The notes under the pieces: generated by a model | What the model saw: the letters and a program-made list of their open reading frames with translations, nothing else | The model's database searches: none | What the model was told of the DNA's origin: nothing | Virus record (IMG/VR): IMGVR_UViG_3300031993_000004 | Coordinates: 128,001 to 192,000 of that record | DNA: 64,000 nucleotides | Strand: one strand, 5' to 3' | Source: a virus | Lineage: Duplodnaviria; Caudoviricetes | Shown: in pieces, positions 8,452 through 39,088 of the stretch | Position numbering within the stretch: position 1 is the first letter of the stretch | How the letters are laid out: the number at the start of each line of letters is the position of its first letter | Program-made: the position numbers and the translations under genes

Positions 8452-8464
8452 GGAGGTGAAGCAT

Positions 8465-10876
8465 ATGGCACAGCAAAAAGAAAGTAATGAAGAGCGATTG
8501 ATACATGGCTTAATGAATGACTTAACCGGTGGAGACATTGTCATGTCGAAAGACGAACTGTCGACAACGATTTCCAATATCTTGAGAAAGTATAACCTTT
8601 CGACAGATATGTCATTCATCGAGAAGATTGCGACAATGAAGTTCCCGGATTCAAATGAGAAACTCTCACTTGATATGATGCCGAAAGAACTGACAGACGC
8701 CGCATTCTTACCGGTCACAACAATTGCGGATATCGCTCTTCGTCAAGATCTCGACATGGTCGTTTCCCAGATTCCTGAATGGTACAACGCATTGATTGTT
8801 ACGCGTGATGCAATCTGTGAATCTGATATCGTTGATGGTACACTTGCACGTACCATCACATTTGACAAAACCAAACTGACTGACACTGAAGAAACGACAA
8901 TCATGGAAAAGATTAAAGCAGTTGAAGAAAAACATCGGCTGCATGCGATCATCAAGAACCATATCGTGTACAACACGTTGTTCTATGGCGAAGGCTATGT
9001 GTATTGTGTTCCATATGCAAAAGTATTCGAGGATCTTTATAAGTACAGACTGAAACAGACTGAACGAAAGGATCCGAGAAATTCAGTTGCGAGTATGTTT
9101 GAAACATCCTCGTCTCTTACCGGATATGGATATGCTTACGGAGAAGCTGCTGTTGAGAGATCTCTGAAAGATACTTACGGAAAGATTGTCCAAGAGCAAG
9201 ACGCAAAGAGTAACGCAAAGAAGCAAGTAACACAAGAGCATGTTTCTTTGTTTTCAGAGCAGGAAATCATCGAAATTATTCCGGGATATCATGCAAAACC
9301 TAACGCCAAGTTGGACCCGGAGGTTGTTGTCGATTCAAAACGCGATGAACAATTCGATGATTACATTGACAGCATTGCGAGCAACATCAGATATATCGAG
9401 CAGGACATTGCGCTCCCTGTCATCGAGGAGTCTGCACTTGACCTGAAACGTGCATATGATGTGAGCTATGGTGAATACAATGATGGAGAGTTTGTCAAGA
9501 AAACAAACACCATCTTTGAATCTGTCATGAACGATGGCGTTTCAGACCCGGATAGCATCAGTAAGGAATTCAAGAACGTTCCAGGTATGTACATCAAGGT
9601 GCTCCCGGCGACGAAACTGATCCCGATTCGTATCGACCGAACTGTTATTGGATATTACTATATTTCTGATTTGACACGTCCGGATGATGCTGGAGAACGT
9701 CGTAACTCAGGTCTGTCTGGTTATACGTTGAGAACACCTTCGATTGGTCATGATACATTCTCACCTGACAGAATGCTTTGTGAACGGCTTGCGACAAAGA
9801 TCATCAACAACTTCAATCTGAAGTTCATGCGTGACAATACGGCGCTGCATCAACAAATTGTCACAATTCTCGAAGCGCATAAGTTCAATGAAGCGATGAT
9901 GCGTTTCATCTATATTCCCGCAGAGAATGTTTGTCAGTGTACCATCAATGAAGATGGTGCTGGTAAGGGTCACTCCATGTTGGAAGGCGGATTGATCACG
10001 GCTAGAATGTACATGTTCTTGAAGATGTACTCAATTCTGTGGCAGATTAACAACTCTGCCATCCGCGTGTATAATCTCCGTTCATCTGGTATTGACAAGA
10101 ACTACAAGCAATTCATTCAGCAACTGGTCAGAAAGTTTTCGGCTCGCCGTGTCACATCGAATGATATCTTCAACTATCGTTCATCACTGACAAAAGTTAC
10201 CGGTGGATCCGAACTCGTTCTTCCGATGGGTCCTGATGACAAAGCACCTGTAACGATCGAGAATATTCCTGCCGCAGAAGCTCCGCTGAATACCAACCTT
10301 CTGGATAAACTTCATGAAGAGGCAATCAACTCAACACCGGTTCCTGCCATCATGGTTAAGAACGGCGGTGTGACAGAAGTCGAATTCTCGAAGGAAGTTG
10401 AATTGTCGAATACACGATTTGTGTCATTCATCTCTTCTACAAAGATTGATATGAATCGTGATATCACGGTTCTGTACAGACGCATTCTTCTGCATGAGAC
10501 TGACATCGATCCTGCGATCATACACGACTTGCGGTTCTCATTCCACATGCCTGCGGCGAAAACATTGTCTGTTACATCAGACATGATAAACAACTTTGAA
10601 GCAATCTTTGAGTTGGCTTCTAAGACATTCTTACGAAAAGAAGATATGCAGACAAAGGATGGGGATGACGATCCGCAATCTCCAATCATGCGTGCTTACA
10701 AGAAACTTCTCATGGGTAAATATTTGCCGCAACTCGATGTAGAAGAATTCGAGAAAATGGCAGAGCAAGCTCGTCAGGAAGCAAACAGCATTAAGATTGA
10801 CAAATATCCATCTTCTCAGAATCTGATTGACAGTTCTGATCTGCCAGAAGAAGGAAAAGAGGAAGGTGAAGAATAA
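8465..10876 (+). CDS. Portal protein
   Basis: About 803 aa from ATG 8465 (RBS GAGGAGGTG). Contains YNTLFYGEGYVY, LIPIRID..IGYYY, GHSML and TPVPA, portal-like segments of jumbo phages, and lies near the terminase. Confidence 0.7.
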   Translation: MAQQKESNEERLIHGLMNDLTGGDIVMSKDELSTTISNILRKYNLSTDMSFIEKIATMKFPDSNEKLSLDMMPKELTDAAFLPVTTIADIALRQDLDMVVSQIPEWYNALIVTRDAICESDIVDGTLARTITFDKTKLTDTEETTIMEKIKAVEEKHRLHAIIKNHIVYNTLFYGEGYVYCVPYAKVFEDLYKYRLKQTERKDPRNSVASMFETSSSLTGYGYAYGEAAVERSLKDTYGKIVQEQDAKSNAKKQVTQEHVSLFSEQEIIEIIPGYHAKPNAKLDPEVVVDSKRDEQFDDYIDSIASNIRYIEQDIALPVIEESALDLKRAYDVSYGEYNDGEFVKKTNTIFESVMNDGVSDPDSISKEFKNVPGMYIKVLPATKLIPIRIDRTVIGYYYISDLTRPDDAGERRNSGLSGYTLRTPSIGHDTFSPDRMLCERLATKIINNFNLKFMRDNTALHQQIVTILEAHKFNEAMMRFIYIPAENVCQCTINEDGAGKGHSMLEGGLITARMYMFLKMYSILWQINNSAIRVYNLRSSGIDKNYKQFIQQLVRKFSARRVTSNDIFNYRSSLTKVTGGSELVLPMGPDDKAPVTIENIPAAEAPLNTNLLDKLHEEAINSTPVPAIMVKNGGVTEVEFSKEVELSNTRFVSFISSTKIDMNRDITVLYRRILLHETDIDPAIIHDLRFSFHMPAAKTLSVTSDMINNFEAIFELASKTFLRKEDMQTKDGDDDPQSPIMRAYKKLLMGKYLPQLDVEEFEKMAEQARQEANSIKIDKYPSSQNLIDSSDLPEEGKEEGEE

Positions 10877-10878
10877 TC

Positions 10879-12324
10879 ATGAAGATCGAGAAAACGACAA
10901 CGGGTCTGATCATCAAAGACCCGACAACTGAAGTCAAGAAAAAATGTTTGCAATACTTCACACTTCAGAAGCCACTTCGTGAATTCTTCATTTACAGCGG
11001 TAATGACCCAGATACAAAACCAACTCTGGGTCATGAACACGATGTGATTTATATCACTTCCGGTTTCCTGAAGATCAACGATCCTGCAATCATGTCATTG
11101 CGAGTGGATTCAACCAAATCGTATCTGACACCGAAACAGATTACACTTGAGATGAATCGCGAACCTCGTTCCAAGTTGCAAGAAGATTGCATCAAACTGG
11201 CGACAACATCGACCTCTCCAAAGGTCACGATGGAACTCAAGCCCGGAACAGGAAAGACGTTTATTGCGCTTTATTCTGCATCAAAGCTTGGGTTGAAGCC
11301 TTTGATTGTTGCACCTACATCATTGCTGAAAAATCAATGGATTGATAATATCCTTGAACTTGGCATTGATCGTAATGACATTGCGACGAAGATATGGGAT
11401 TCTCCACATAAGAAAGTGTGTGTTGTCACGATTTCTTCATTGGAAGGTGCTGTCCGCGATGATTGGAATGGCCTCATGAAGACAATGGATTCTGCAGGAT
11501 TCGGAATCAAAGTTATCGACGAAGCACATCTTCATTTGAAAGGAATGCTGAAGTTTGATGCATTGTGCAATATCAAGCACAATTGGTATCTGTCTGCGAC
11601 GCTCGGACGTTCTGATCCTTCTGAAGACAGAATCCTGAATCGTGCGCTTGCTGATGCAACCAGATTTATCGGCAACTCTGCATATGAGGAATACCAGAAA
11701 GAATATGTCCAGGTTTATCTTCAGGACATCTTCTACTTCCCGTCTTCAAAACTCTGTGAGAAATGCTTCAAGTATGGATCAAAGGGTTTGATTCGTTCCT
11801 CATACTATCGCATGCTGATGTCATATCGTAATGGTGAACCTTTTATTCGGAACATCGTGAATGTCATTAAACGTGCAAAAGGAATCATCAACTATGACGG
11901 AAAGATCTTGGTGCTTGTTCCATTGCTCGATATCATTGATCGTGTTCTCCAAGCAATGAAAGCTGATCCGTTCTTCAGGAATTACACGATTGCCGGTGTT
12001 GATGGTTCTATGCCATTGGCAAAACGTCGTGAAGCAATGGAATCCAACTTCATTCTTTCAACATCCTTGTCGATGGGTACTGGTGTTGACGTTCAGAATC
12101 TTGGTGTTGTTGTGAACTTCGACCAATATTCTTCGTCAATTATTGGCGAGCAGATCTTCGGACGTTTGAGAGACCGCGGTAAAGAGACGTACTATGTCGA
12201 CGTCTGTGATCATGTCAAGCAGGCTTCCATGTTAAGACGATGGGGTGAGAAGCGTCGTCTGCTGATTCCATATTATCCTGGCGCAAAACGGGATATGAAA
12301 AAATTTCCGAACATCTTCTGTTGA
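10879..12324 (+). CDS. Superfamily 2 DEAH helicase (UvsW-like)
   Basis: Motif I PGTGKT, Ia IVAPT, II DEAH, III SAT, V GTGVDV and VI QIFGRLR. Confidence 0.9.
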   Translation: MKIEKTTTGLIIKDPTTEVKKKCLQYFTLQKPLREFFIYSGNDPDTKPTLGHEHDVIYITSGFLKINDPAIMSLRVDSTKSYLTPKQITLEMNREPRSKLQEDCIKLATTSTSPKVTMELKPGTGKTFIALYSASKLGLKPLIVAPTSLLKNQWIDNILELGIDRNDIATKIWDSPHKKVCVVTISSLEGAVRDDWNGLMKTMDSAGFGIKVIDEAHLHLKGMLKFDALCNIKHNWYLSATLGRSDPSEDRILNRALADATRFIGNSAYEEYQKEYVQVYLQDIFYFPSSKLCEKCFKYGSKGLIRSSYYRMLMSYRNGEPFIRNIVNVIKRAKGIINYDGKILVLVPLLDIIDRVLQAMKADPFFRNYTIAGVDGSMPLAKRREAMESNFILSTSLSMGTGVDVQNLGVVVNFDQYSSSIIGEQIFGRLRDRGKETYYVDVCDHVKQASMLRRWGEKRRLLIPYYPGAKRDMKKFPNIFC

Positions 12325-12334
12325 ACGGAATAAT

Positions 12335-12460
12335 AATCCGGAATGCTCCCTTCTCCTCACACAGGGATTGGCCTCCCTGTTTCGCCGAAGCGGGTCGGCG
12401 ACTACGATGTGTTTTCCTCCTTGAGAACATGCTTACACCATTCGAAAAGCATTCCGGATT
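12335..12460 (+). ncRNA. Candidate structured RNA (four-way junction) in the helicase 3' region
   Basis: A perfect 13-bp closing stem (12335-12347/12448-12460) encloses three hairpins: 12361-12380, 12382-12401 and 12408-12431. Confidence 0.55.
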
Positions 12461-12462
12461 TT

Positions 12463-12513
12463 GATATTTATCGTGCGGGGCGAAAGCCCCGCACTAAAAT
12501 ATCATTTCTTTTT
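12463..12513 (+). terminator. Terminator, GNRA-capped
   Basis: GTGCGGGGC-gaaa-GCCCCGCAC with an extended AT stem and a TTTCTTTTT tail. Lies between the convergent helicase and terminase genes. Confidence 0.75.
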
Positions 12514-14632
12514 AGAATTGCTGTGAGGAGTAATATGCCATGTCAGATGTATCAATCGATACAAGTGGCATATCACCGCCATAGTCAGTACGTCTGTAAC
12601 CATACTCGTCATAACCATCACGACCAAAACCATTTCTGTTCGTTTGGTCAAGATTCTCACGCAACAACTGCATTTCGAATCCTTCTTTATCGCGATATGG
12701 AATAATGTTGTTAATCTGTTCTTCAGACAATTCCTGTTCGTATTGTTCAACTTGTTGACGACCAGTTTTGAAAGTGCACCGCTCTTTGTATATACCAAAC
12801 CGCTCCAATTTGTAACCGAAGTAGAAGATATAGAGGATATGGTTGTATGCCATGACCAGGTCATCATGGCATCCTGCAGCCGCTTCGATTTTTCCATTCT
12901 TACCACGAACAAGATTCATGATATCGAATGAGAGATATTTGGTTGTCATCAACTCTCTATAGTCATGCACGTGAGACTTCAACAACACAAACATCTTTTC
13001 ACGAATTGCAGTTGTCAGATACGTACCGATATAACCCTTCTCGACAGCTTGACGTTTAACTGTCATCTCATCGGTCTCACCACGTGTAATCGCATTCTTA
13101 GAAGCGTCAAGTTTCGGATCATGATAGAACCGGTGTTCAAGATGTGACTTCTGTACGAAATCAACGATTGTAACACCAAGGGAGTTCGTCTCAATGATGA
13201 AGATACAAGACGGAATCAGTTTTGCAATTTCAATGATGACAGACATCGTATCAAACGGTCCCAAGAAGTTACAAACCAATTCACCAACAACTTGGAATGT
13301 ATACGGGTGAACGACAATCACGGCCGTGTTGTCTCCGTTCTTACCAGATGCAGGGTCGATACCGACAAGATACGGTAACCGCGTGTCATAATACGGTGTA
13401 TCGGATGTCAAACTCTTGTTGACAATTGGATGATCATAAACATAGAAATTGAATACATTCATAATCTTCACAACATGATCAGGTTCACGTGTATGTTGAG
13501 AAATGTAATCAATATCTGCTTGTTCGAACAGAACGCCCTCTTCACCACGATACCGTTGCAACAAAACACCACGACGATACTCGTTGATGGTACCTTTCTT
13601 AACGGCTTCGTAGTATTGCTCTCTCAACCAAGCTTCATCTTTGCGAAGTTGCTTGTAATTGAACTCGATGTAGAACATCGAAATCGGAACACGATCTTGG
13701 TCTTCTTCGTCCGGACCTGGAACGAGTTGCATCCGAGCAATTTCTTCATCCGTCTTGTCATAGATATGCTCATCAAACACAGGAAGATTATCAATGATCT
13801 TTTGGAAGTTGATACCATCCTGCGTTTCCAAGTTACCAGGTGTTGATGCATACATAATACAAGAACGGATACCCATCTGTCTTGCTGTAATGCGAGCTTG
13901 AACGATTGTCGGGTTCGCACCATCAATGAATGCTTTCATGTATGGCACGAATTCACATTCATCGAAGAAGCCTGCAAACAGAGAAAGACCACGAGACTTG
14001 TCTTCTGCAACAGTTTCAGAACGTGCGGCGGATACAGTTGCAATAGAACAGTTGTGTTTTTCATATTTGAGAGACTGCAAACCTGGAAGATGTTTCATCT
14101 TGGCCCAAGGATTCATATATTCCGGCAAAGCTGTGATATAATCGCGCAGAATACCAACGTTGTCCATGCAACGTTTCTCAGTTCTGTGCATATATGGAAT
14201 ATCAATGTTCTGATATTCAAACAACATCATGTATGAGACAATCGATGTCAATACCGTTGTCTTATAGGTCTGACGAGGTTGCACAAGTTCAAAGTCGAAA
14301 CTGTGAATGAACGACCATATCGCAGCACATCCAGCTCTATGTAAATACAAAGGAACTTTACCTGCACCACGAATCGGAATTCGTACAACTTCTCTGAAAT
14401 AGAACCATGGATTCTTTTTACATTCACCAATGATTCTGCCAATGTTCTCTGCCGTTATATTTGGATCGTATGGGTCGATGTCTTGTACGCCTAAGTCGGG
14501 ACGTTTTACTTCCAACATGAAGTACCATTTCTTGATACCCAATGTTTTCAGTTCTTGTGCGGTCAGTAGAAATGATTGGTTTTTTGTTCCAAAATCATAA
14601 TACTTATTCCCAATTCGTCGAACATCAGACAT
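12512..14632 (-). CDS. terL: Terminase large subunit
   Basis: Walker A-like PRQTYKTT, Walker B FFDECEF, coupling motif ASTPG, RNase H-like GIDPASG...D and HDDLVMA. RBS AAGGAGGTG. Confidence 0.92.
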   Translation of the reverse strand: MSDVRRIGNKYYDFGTKNQSFLLTAQELKTLGIKKWYFMLEVKRPDLGVQDIDPYDPNITAENIGRIIGECKKNPWFYFREVVRIPIRGAGKVPLYLHRAGCAAIWSFIHSFDFELVQPRQTYKTTVLTSIVSYMMLFEYQNIDIPYMHRTEKRCMDNVGILRDYITALPEYMNPWAKMKHLPGLQSLKYEKHNCSIATVSAARSETVAEDKSRGLSLFAGFFDECEFVPYMKAFIDGANPTIVQARITARQMGIRSCIMYASTPGNLETQDGINFQKIIDNLPVFDEHIYDKTDEEIARMQLVPGPDEEDQDRVPISMFYIEFNYKQLRKDEAWLREQYYEAVKKGTINEYRRGVLLQRYRGEEGVLFEQADIDYISQHTREPDHVVKIMNVFNFYVYDHPIVNKSLTSDTPYYDTRLPYLVGIDPASGKNGDNTAVIVVHPYTFQVVGELVCNFLGPFDTMSVIIEIAKLIPSCIFIIETNSLGVTIVDFVQKSHLEHRFYHDPKLDASKNAITRGETDEMTVKRQAVEKGYIGTYLTTAIREKMFVLLKSHVHDYRELMTTKYLSFDIMNLVRGKNGKIEAAAGCHDDLVMAYNHILYIFYFGYKLERFGIYKERCTFKTGRQQVEQYEQELSEEQINNIIPYRDKEGFEMQLLRENLDQTNRNGFGRDGYDEYGYRRTDYGGDMPLVSIDTSDMAYYSSQQF

Positions 14633-29957: not shown

Positions 29958-29972
29958 TTACAAAAACGTTTT
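29958..29972 (-). promoter_or_regulatory. Late-type promoter motif AAAACG-N6-TAA
   Basis: AAAACG-tttttg-TAA. The same motif occurs at 39074 (+) and 55753 (-). Confidence 0.5.
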
Positions 29973-30172: not shown

Positions 30173-30246
30173 TCATGGGAAGTGTATAATCTTTAGCTTC
30201 TCTGAACAAACAAATACAATTTTGTTGCGAAAGGCGGGTTTTTATC

Positions 30247-38839: not shown

Positions 38840-39018
38840 TCGCAGTGGGCATATTGTATGAAGCAGTGATTGGTGGATTTGACCCGAAAAAATATAAGAC
38901 GGTCGATCGCCAACATCAAACATCTACCGAACCTCGTGGAGACGGGGAGGATCCGCGGGGTTCGAAACATATGGGGGCGAACGGGAGTGGGGAGGCACCC
39001 GTTCGTTCGGGGAGATAA
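38836..39018 (+). CDS. Small hypothetical protein (60 aa)
   Basis: GTGA overlap with the upstream stop, AAGGA RBS, ends at a terminator. Confidence 0.4.
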   Translation: MIAVGILYEAVIGGFDPKKYKTVDRQHQTSTEPRGDGEDPRGSKHMGANGSGEAPVRSGR

Positions 39019-39055
39019 TGCATGGGGGCGCTTCGGCGCCCCCGCATTATTTTTT
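39015..39055 (+). terminator. Intrinsic terminator, cUUCGg loop
   Basis: GGGGGCGC-ttcg-GCGCCCCC with an extension and a T tract. Confidence 0.85.
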
Positions 39056-39073
39056 CTTCTATTATAGTATCGA

Positions 39074-39088
39074 AAAACGACTTCATAA
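39074..39088 (+). promoter_or_regulatory. Late-type promoter motif for the fibre operon
   Basis: AAAACG-acttca-TAA. Confidence 0.5.

Follow-up and report, generated by a model that had tools for sequence, protein, structure and literature searches.

The 187-nt gap between the convergent helicase and large terminase (TerL) genes of this uncultured, AR9-like jumbo phage holds a compact structured element, which raises the question whether the element is a functional RNA, from which promoter and strand it would be transcribed, and what it would do. The window analyzed here is a stretch of 64,000 nt that corresponds to bases 128001-192000 of a 277,583-bp IMG/VR jumbo-phage record rated as complete. 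The location in a helicase-terminase gap, as given in a preliminary description of the sequence, agrees with the domain content and with the phrog_2 match of the flanking genes. Upstream lies an SF2 helicase gene (10879-12324, plus strand) with ResIII, DEAD and Helicase_C domains, whose stop codon (12322-12324) is overlapped by one base by a predicted promoter, and on the other side the TerL gene runs towards it (12512-14632, minus strand; phrog_2, 2e-38). The helicase gene is preceded at a distance of 2 nt by the gene of an 806-aa portal-like virion protein (8456-10876, plus strand; phrog_3004), which shows a weak tblastn match to the portal vertex protein of AR9/PBS1 (E 1e-6 to 5e-8). A split RNA polymerase beta-like gene comes after TerL, the polymerases of this phage being split and beta/beta'-like. 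Among cultured phages, the helicase has its nearest relatives in AR9, PBS1 and staphylococcal and Listeria jumbo phages, with an identity of just 24-29%.

The MFE fold of 12325-12515 reached -76.0 kcal/mol, compared with -46.1 ± 4.1 kcal/mol in 200 dinucleotide shuffles (z -7.37; 0/200 shuffles as good). A 13-bp stem enclosing three hairpins, two of them with 7-bp stems and the third with G-U pairs, had been proposed from the letters, and both the sequence and the fold confirm this architecture on the plus strand. The closing stem P1 joins 12335-12347 to 12448-12460 by 13 Watson-Crick base pairs, a pairing that is also found by MAFFT covariation. Within it lie P2 (12361-67/12374-80; 7 bp, loop UUGGCC), for which fold and covariation agree, P3 (12382-88/12395-12401; 7 bp, loop AGCGGG) and P4 (12409-16/12423-30; 8 bp including two G-U pairs), the latter being capped by the loop CUCCUU (12417-22). 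This loop and the stretch CCCUUCUCCUC at 12348-58, both described earlier as single-stranded, are likewise unpaired in the MFE fold. The stretch is part of the pyrimidine-rich junction J1/2 (12348-12360, CCCUUCUCCUCAC), which represents a second anti-Shine-Dalgarno (anti-SD)-like element. P4 leads back to P1 through J4/1 (12431-12447), an unpaired segment whose core, ACACCAUUCG, is conserved in the comparison of homologs.

Downstream of P1, a terminator-like module (12462-12513, plus strand) consists in the MFE fold of a long hairpin of 43 nt (12462-12504) and a U tract. The hairpin combines a GC stem with a GAAA loop (12473-81/12486-94) and an AU stem that extends it (12462-69/12497-12504); the U tract UUUCUUUUU (12505-13) overlaps the TerL stop codon. 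Hairpin, GAAA loop and U tract of the terminator proposed earlier are hence all present, but a simple terminator scanner made no call for the 12462-12504 hairpin because it is the AU extension, rather than the GC stem, that precedes the U tract. The terminator of this RNA is not a canonical one.

Homologs and conservation of the fold

Relatives of the locus were gathered with a helicase search of IMG/VR and JGI/ENA metagenomes, which yielded about 40 distinct loci. Twelve homologs of the RNA were identified in related rumen jumbo phages, with one copy per genome and with adjoining helicases that are 70-88% identical. They fall into three subtypes: subtype A comprises the copy in the window, L002, L004, L073 and the truncated L074 and L080; subtype B (L005, L012 and L086) carries one or two additional small hairpins; and subtype C (L019, L006 and L077) is longer and has CCUCC doubled in the P4 loop. 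More distant relatives with identical helicase-TerL synteny, including G004 and G005, lack the RNA, and a second covariance model (R2) gave no match in AR9.

An Rfam search had been recommended in the preliminary description; run against Rfam 15 on the whole window, it returned no known family at the gathering threshold. With E-values of up to 10, region 12300-12530 gave only weak matches centred on the terminator hairpin, the best of which (sX7) scored 17 bits against a threshold of 55. ARAGORN detected no tRNA or tmRNA genes in the window, a blastn search of 50,697 phage records with the element as query found nothing, and a search of IMG/VR for an exact 24-mer of the element found none. The pattern ACACCATTCG..CCGGATT matched 48 times in IMG/VR; according to the covariance model, only the matches in related jumbo phages are real, and the others are due to chance. 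A coding function of the open reading frame that begins at ATG 12343 was rejected: it would start 8 nt from the predicted transcription start and has no SD, a 1-nt indel breaks the frame in L002, and the ATG is lost in GGGGUG/GGAGUG variants.

The covariation analysis that had also been recommended revealed that the helices are kept through compensatory changes. In an unbiased MAFFT alignment of the 10 full-length copies, P1 is 99.2% paired and four of its pairs have changed on both sides, from GC to AU and from AU to GC, with positions 1-5 being invariant; when the partner is slid by 1-3 columns, pairing falls to 23-53%. For subtype A, 11 of 35 pairs have changed on both sides compared with 3.6 ± 1.5 in shuffles (0/500 as many), P2 shows compensatory changes at four pairs, and sliding the partners cuts pairing from 96% to 37-51%. 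RNAalifold recovers all four helices with 10 compensatory pairs. The interiors of subtypes B and C aligned poorly under the covariance model, and MAFFT displaced the pair columns of the hairpins; because these single-alignment approaches misaligned the hairpins, interior covariation across the subtypes was shown from individual folds. At least six different P3 stems surround one loop motif, with GCGRG present in all complete homologs, and at least six different P4 stems surround the motif UUCCUCC, which is invariant in 12/12 homologs. Taken together, we consider it highly probable that the element is a real, structured RNA on the plus strand.

Two further structural features were tried and discarded. 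A pseudoknot between the P3 loop GCGGG and J1/2, judged by hand on the homolog sequences, would be possible with 5-7 bp in L002, L073, L005 and L012, and has no counterpart in the window or L080. For a T-loop or tRNA-like reading of UUCGAAA, the closing stem is missing and the equivalent of A58 is not conserved. Palindromes were seen in several P2 loops, namely GGCC in five subtype A copies (12368-12373 in the window), GGGCCC in L005 and GUAC/ACGU in L012 and L086; they are missing from L004 and subtype C. Judging from these sequences, the palindromes could support loop-loop dimers.

Promoter and transcription unit

A scan for sigma-70 promoters found none on the plus strand. A motif of the form AAC(G/A)-N6-TA ends on the first base of P1 in 12/12 homologs, whereby the N6 part varies freely, and the chance of the motif ending on this base is below 0.001 per lineage. 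In the window the motif reads AACG-GAATAA-TA (12324-12335, plus strand) and is predicted to be a promoter of the AR9 'late' type for the non-virion RNA polymerase (nvRNAP). In AR9, non-early transcripts derive from AACA-(6N)-TA/G, the last base of which is the start, and early transcripts start after AAATATATATTAT-(6N)-G (PMC5312081). The AR9 late promoter has been described as A(-11)ACA-(6N)-T-A/G(+1), with the block from -11 to -8 being essential in vitro and A being needed at -8 (PMC5449584). Motif architecture and spacing at the locus studied here are the same as in AR9 nvRNAP units; the difference lies in base -8, which is G in place of A in most copies (subtypes A and B), subtype C having AACA.

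Since AR9 needs A at -8, the promoter argument rests on the use of AACG in the phage's own genome (G000). AACG-N6-TA occurs there in 79 copies, 25 of which belong to the non-coding part (9.6%) of the genome, and AACG is the majority form upstream of genes. Ten copies are placed 24-31 nt upstream of a start codon, and the extended consensus of these promoters reads AAACG-N5-G-TAAC-YTTA; clear mRNA promoters of the AACG type number only about 10-14 in the genome. Genes found behind AACG promoters encode RNAP beta-like subunits, a UvsX-like recombinase, topoisomerase II and a phosphoesterase, and two AACG promoters are conserved in G001 and G002. Because AACG is used upstream of the phage's own genes, G at -8 can be regarded as the usual base in this phage. 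As a bare motif, AACR-N6-TR is rarer in the window than expected (137 vs 162 ± 12). Within the window, AACG-type promoters were also noted at 29959-29970 (minus strand), 30205-30216 (plus strand) and 39076-39087 (plus strand).

These sequence features make it likely that the RNA has its own promoter. The motif would also explain how the RNA can be expressed behind another terminator, as in L005, L012 and L086, where another structured element with its own terminator lies between helicase and RNA, or behind a divergent gene, as in L006, where an inserted minus-strand gene separates the two. Most likely, the locus is an independent plus-strand small-RNA gene that extends from 12335 to about 12510 and not just a processed 3'UTR, its 5' and 3' ends being predicted from the promoter motif and the terminal hairpin. 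The origin from a 3'UTR suggested earlier has therefore to be modified: the promoter motif is conserved, and the element has been retained at loci where its link to the helicase is broken, although processing may provide a second route to the same RNA. The timing could be called 'late' by analogy with AR9. 'Non-early' is the safer term because recombinase, topoisomerase and polymerase-subunit genes follow AACG promoters.

Like AR9, this genome also carries AR9-type early promoters. In relatives, an AT-rich motif, (C/T)ATATATATATTAT-N6-G, matches the AR9 early (virion RNAP) promoter and is placed directly after the sRNA terminator, before small plus-strand genes that are inserted between the sRNA and TerL (L002 5640-5665, L004 5635-5660, L005 5820-5846, L019 6025-6050, L073 1895-1920, L086 5915-5945). 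The promoter grammar of this clade would consist of ATATATATTAT-N6-G for early and AAACG-N6-TAAC for non-early transcription. A decoy function of the RNA as template-strand promoter of nvRNAP (UA-N6-CGUU in the RNA) was rejected, since this sequence is not conserved.

Unlike in the AR9 nvRNAP units, the product here would be a non-coding RNA; a text search of the AR9 transcriptome paper found no mention of small or noncoding RNA. To our knowledge, small RNAs have been predicted for only few virulent phages. For phiKZ, dRNA-seq of early infection confirmed no phage sRNA, and any were expected to be late (PMC8244752). With a predicted start and end, a fold backed by covariation, a conserved loop and a family of three subtypes, the locus is a well-delimited sRNA candidate. 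If confirmed, it would be the first non-coding RNA gene tied to an AR9-type nvRNAP promoter, as far as the literature searched shows, and it would open a way to study how Gram-positive-type jumbo phages regulate gene expression post-transcriptionally.

Exposed anti-SD elements and the possible role of the RNA

The P4 loop had been described as the complement of the AAGGAG ribosome-binding site (RBS) used by this phage, and this usage holds, with AGGAGG-type SDs on about 80% of the crudely called phage genes. Each homolog contains one to three CCUCC and no GGAGG, compared with about 0.05 CCUCC expected per 126 nt. Besides the P4 motif, every homolog displays either one or more additional CCUCC or unpaired pyrimidines over 8 nt or more. 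This second element lies in J1/2 (subtypes A and B), in an additional loop (L012) or in the duplicated part of the P4 loop (subtype C). Because two such elements are kept by different structural routes, their display is suggested to be the selected function. The pyrimidine run of J1/2 has been retained in subtype A, in subtype B and, among the subtype C sequences, in L019; L006 and L077 lack it. Of the two loop sequences whose conservation had been in question, that of P4 is retained throughout the family, whereas 12348-58 is not kept as an exact anti-SD, as it reads CUCUCUCG in subtype B and is absent from two subtype C sequences.

We compared the unpaired segments with 229 initiation regions using RNAduplex. 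Pairing of the P4 loop is predicted for almost every RBS, with a median of -10.4 kcal/mol. The energies are broadly distributed, none of the regions stands out or represents a specific target that is conserved, and nothing co-varies with the loop flanks. A generic anti-SD would act on the genes of the phage itself as well. The RNA shows the conserved, unpaired C-rich motif complementary to the SD that characterizes the class of anti-SD sRNAs. The idea of an anti-SD regulatory RNA, already part of the preliminary description, gains an invariant CCUCC-type loop, but the pairing is generic and points to no specific target. By analogy with known systems, we regard anti-SD pairing as a conceivable function of the RNA, at somewhat short of an even chance.

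Among these systems, the RNA would act most like the Gram-positive C-rich-loop riboregulators, although no described family fits. In RsaE and RNAIII, unpaired UCCC motifs bind SDs, and a UCCCC motif of icaR is listed in the same study (PMC2790875). The RNA shares with S. aureus RNAIII (hairpins 7/13/14) and RsaE/RoxS a structured 5' end, a 3' terminator hairpin and several unpaired C-rich loop or junction motifs complementary to GGAGG-type SDs, a multivalency that is kept across homologs. It differs from them in that there is no homology in sequence or structure and no Rfam match, and its motif is CCUCC, the full anti-SD core, instead of UCCC. Furthermore, it is phage-encoded, forms a four-way junction and is apparently made by a phage multisubunit polymerase. 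The RNA is probably a phage riboregulator of an undescribed family.

The whole of the observations is best explained by an nvRNAP-made four-way-junction anti-SD riboregulator, a reading that we hold tentatively and rate only slightly below an even chance. The nvRNAP would start at A12335 from AACG-N6-TA (12324-12335), so that the transcript would open with the first base of P1, fold into the four-way junction P1-P4 and end at the long hairpin and U tract near 12510. This would yield a compact product of about 178 nt with the 5' end hidden in a blunt helix. The same RNA could in addition be released by processing of transcripts that read through from the helicase gene and probably also from the portal-like gene. 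Its working parts would be the exposed CCUCC-type elements, i.e. the P4 loop and a second one in J1/2, in another loop or in the duplicated P4 loop. In the non-early phase, these would pair with GGAGG SDs of phage and/or host mRNAs, which would lead to a block of initiation or to decay.

Alternative readings and neighbouring features

It is also possible, though unlikely, that the plus-strand RNA acts via a protein or a large complex, as a scaffold, decoy or sponge. It could, for instance, imitate the 3' tail of the 16S rRNA and thereby titrate a factor or a host nuclease that targets this tail; other options are that it associates with the phage polymerase or the ribosome, or that it serves the packaging motor in the portal-helicase-TerL module. 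Such a role would account for a scaffold that is more elaborate and more conserved than seed-bearing sRNAs require, for P1 positions 1-5 that never vary, and for a GCGRG loop and a ACACCAUUCG junction that are conserved with no obvious anti-SD task. It would also be in keeping with the lack of a specific mRNA target and with the position of the gene between the portal-like and TerL genes. The P2 loop palindromes (GGCC, GGGCCC, GUAC/ACGU) could mediate dimers, yet they trace to approximately two independent events, and L004 and subtype C do without them. What weakens this reading is that no partner was identified and that the RNA matches neither phi29 pRNA nor any other Rfam family.

The element resembles phi29 pRNA in its length (about 170-180 nt), in the pairing of its 5' end with its 3' end, in a junction of several helices and in being encoded close to packaging genes. 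Unlike pRNA, it belongs to a different phage family and motor type and has no Rfam match. The inspected fold outputs contain no complementary, covarying loop pair, just the P2 palindromes of some homologs, and not all relatives with the packaging genes have the element: it is missing from G004, G005 and many loci of the same synteny. As relatives with the portal-helicase-TerL order occur without the RNA, it is not a general motor component, and the packaging-related role named earlier as a weaker alternative found no positive support. Quite improbable in our view is a further reading, in which the RNA would be a multivalent mimic of the 16S rRNA anti-SD tail on a nuclease-resistant scaffold. 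Made by the phage polymerase after the early phase, it would not regulate particular genes but would compete with ribosomes for SDs globally, as a timed translation switch, or act as decoy for host factors or toxins that recognise the rRNA 3' tail. A form of this reading with a pRNA-like component that works with the neighbouring portal and TerL is less likely.

The element might instead be a cis-acting 3' end module of the helicase unit, or probably the portal-helicase unit, that stabilizes the mRNA and insulates it against convergent collision, with no function in trans. In 8/12 homologs the RNA starts 11 nt past the helicase stop, it lies between convergent genes in the window, L077 and L012/L086, and its hairpins are very stable; unrelated structured elements are found at the same place in L005 and L012 (first elements), L013 and L020. 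As a variant, the anti-SD elements might fold back on the SD of their own mRNA. The 3'UTR of S. aureus icaR reportedly holds a C-rich anti-SD element able to do so, and the two loci resemble each other in having a C-rich anti-SD sequence right after a stop codon. Unlike icaR, however, the locus studied here has its own promoter signal, conserved in register, and the unit survives separation from the upstream gene: element and upstream motif are kept in spite of an intervening terminator in L005, L012 and L086 and of an intervening divergent gene in L006. Moreover, a mere terminator would not need invariant loops with covarying stems, and in six homologs the next gene is co-directional, which leaves nothing to insulate. 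We consider a purely cis-acting module improbable.

All of these readings place the RNA on the plus strand. The minus strand folds equally well (z -7.47), and neither the folding energy nor the energy of the mirrored structure separates the strands. The assignment to the plus strand follows from the U-rich tail, the G-U:A-C count and the conserved promoter, the promoter being the most telling. In 9/10 homologs, the tail of the long hairpin has 6-9 U in 12 nt on the plus strand versus 2-3 on the minus strand. The G-U:A-C cells of the helices amount to 12:2 in favour of the plus strand, in an alignment that was fitted to the plus-strand model and with cells that are related to each other. A functional minus-strand RNA would be a TerL 3'UTR or antisense RNA in which GGA sites of an SD-like or CsrA type would be displayed by AGGAGGAA and GGAGAAGG. 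The TerL gene stops 50 nt away from the element, and its transcripts may read in, given that the hairpin has no minus-strand U tract. Against this stand the early promoter and plus-strand genes that separate element and TerL in L002, L004, L005, L019, L073 and L086, and the minus strand near the element has no promoter motif of either AR9 type. We regard a minus-strand RNA as very improbable, as it would leave the conserved plus-strand promoter unexplained. The CsrA sponge on the opposite strand that had been considered earlier was accordingly abandoned: compared with sponges of the CsrB/RsmZ type, promoter and U tail are absent there, and the strand asymmetry favours the plus strand.

A signal at the level of DNA, i.e. 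a packaging start, replication origin or recombination site formed by cruciform repeats, is barely credible, since in spite of the perfect inverted repeats next to terL and the helicase gene, the stems change by compensation around invariant loops, G-U pairs are tolerated, promoter and terminator signals frame exactly the folded unit, and close relatives with the same gene order occur without the element.

Some features of the window and of the related loci deserve mention in their own right. At 38920-39060 of the window, an array of hairpins ends a plus-strand operon; the loops of two long hairpins contain GGGGAGG, a third copy, GGGGAG, occurs unpaired, and the array is followed by a strong terminator and the AACG-N6-TA promoter at 39076-39087 (fold z -5.4). 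A partnership between the RNA and this GGGGAGG array (38920-39010) was rejected, as the nearest relatives, G001 and G002, do not have the array at their syntenic site, which holds only terminator and promoter.

Other structured elements follow the helicase stop in L005 (5455-5600), L012 (6140-6345), L086 (5470-5670), L013 (3640-3740) and L020 (5085-5150). They are unrelated to the RNA and have their own terminators and no AACR promoter; in L020, a near-match (AACG-N6-TT) lies at the helicase stop. Several of them carry CCUCC in a loop, with UACCUCCUAAAAA being common to L013 and L020 and GGUACCUCCA occurring in L005, and the first element of L012 and L086 has CUUCC paired with GGAGG in a 13-bp stem. 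A general theme of CCUCC after the helicase was discarded, since it applies to 13/37 distinct loci, some of the instances being terminator stems, and amounts to no clade-wide rule.

The TerL gene of L005 (6583-8676) is on the strand of the helicase and thus inverted relative to all other loci. An interruption of the helicase gene near residue 124 measures about 670 nt in L012 (4001-6112) and about 330 nt in L019 (4001-5770), and in L018, L020-L023 and others only helicase residues 124-481 were found, a sequence pattern that suggests an intron, an intein or a split gene.
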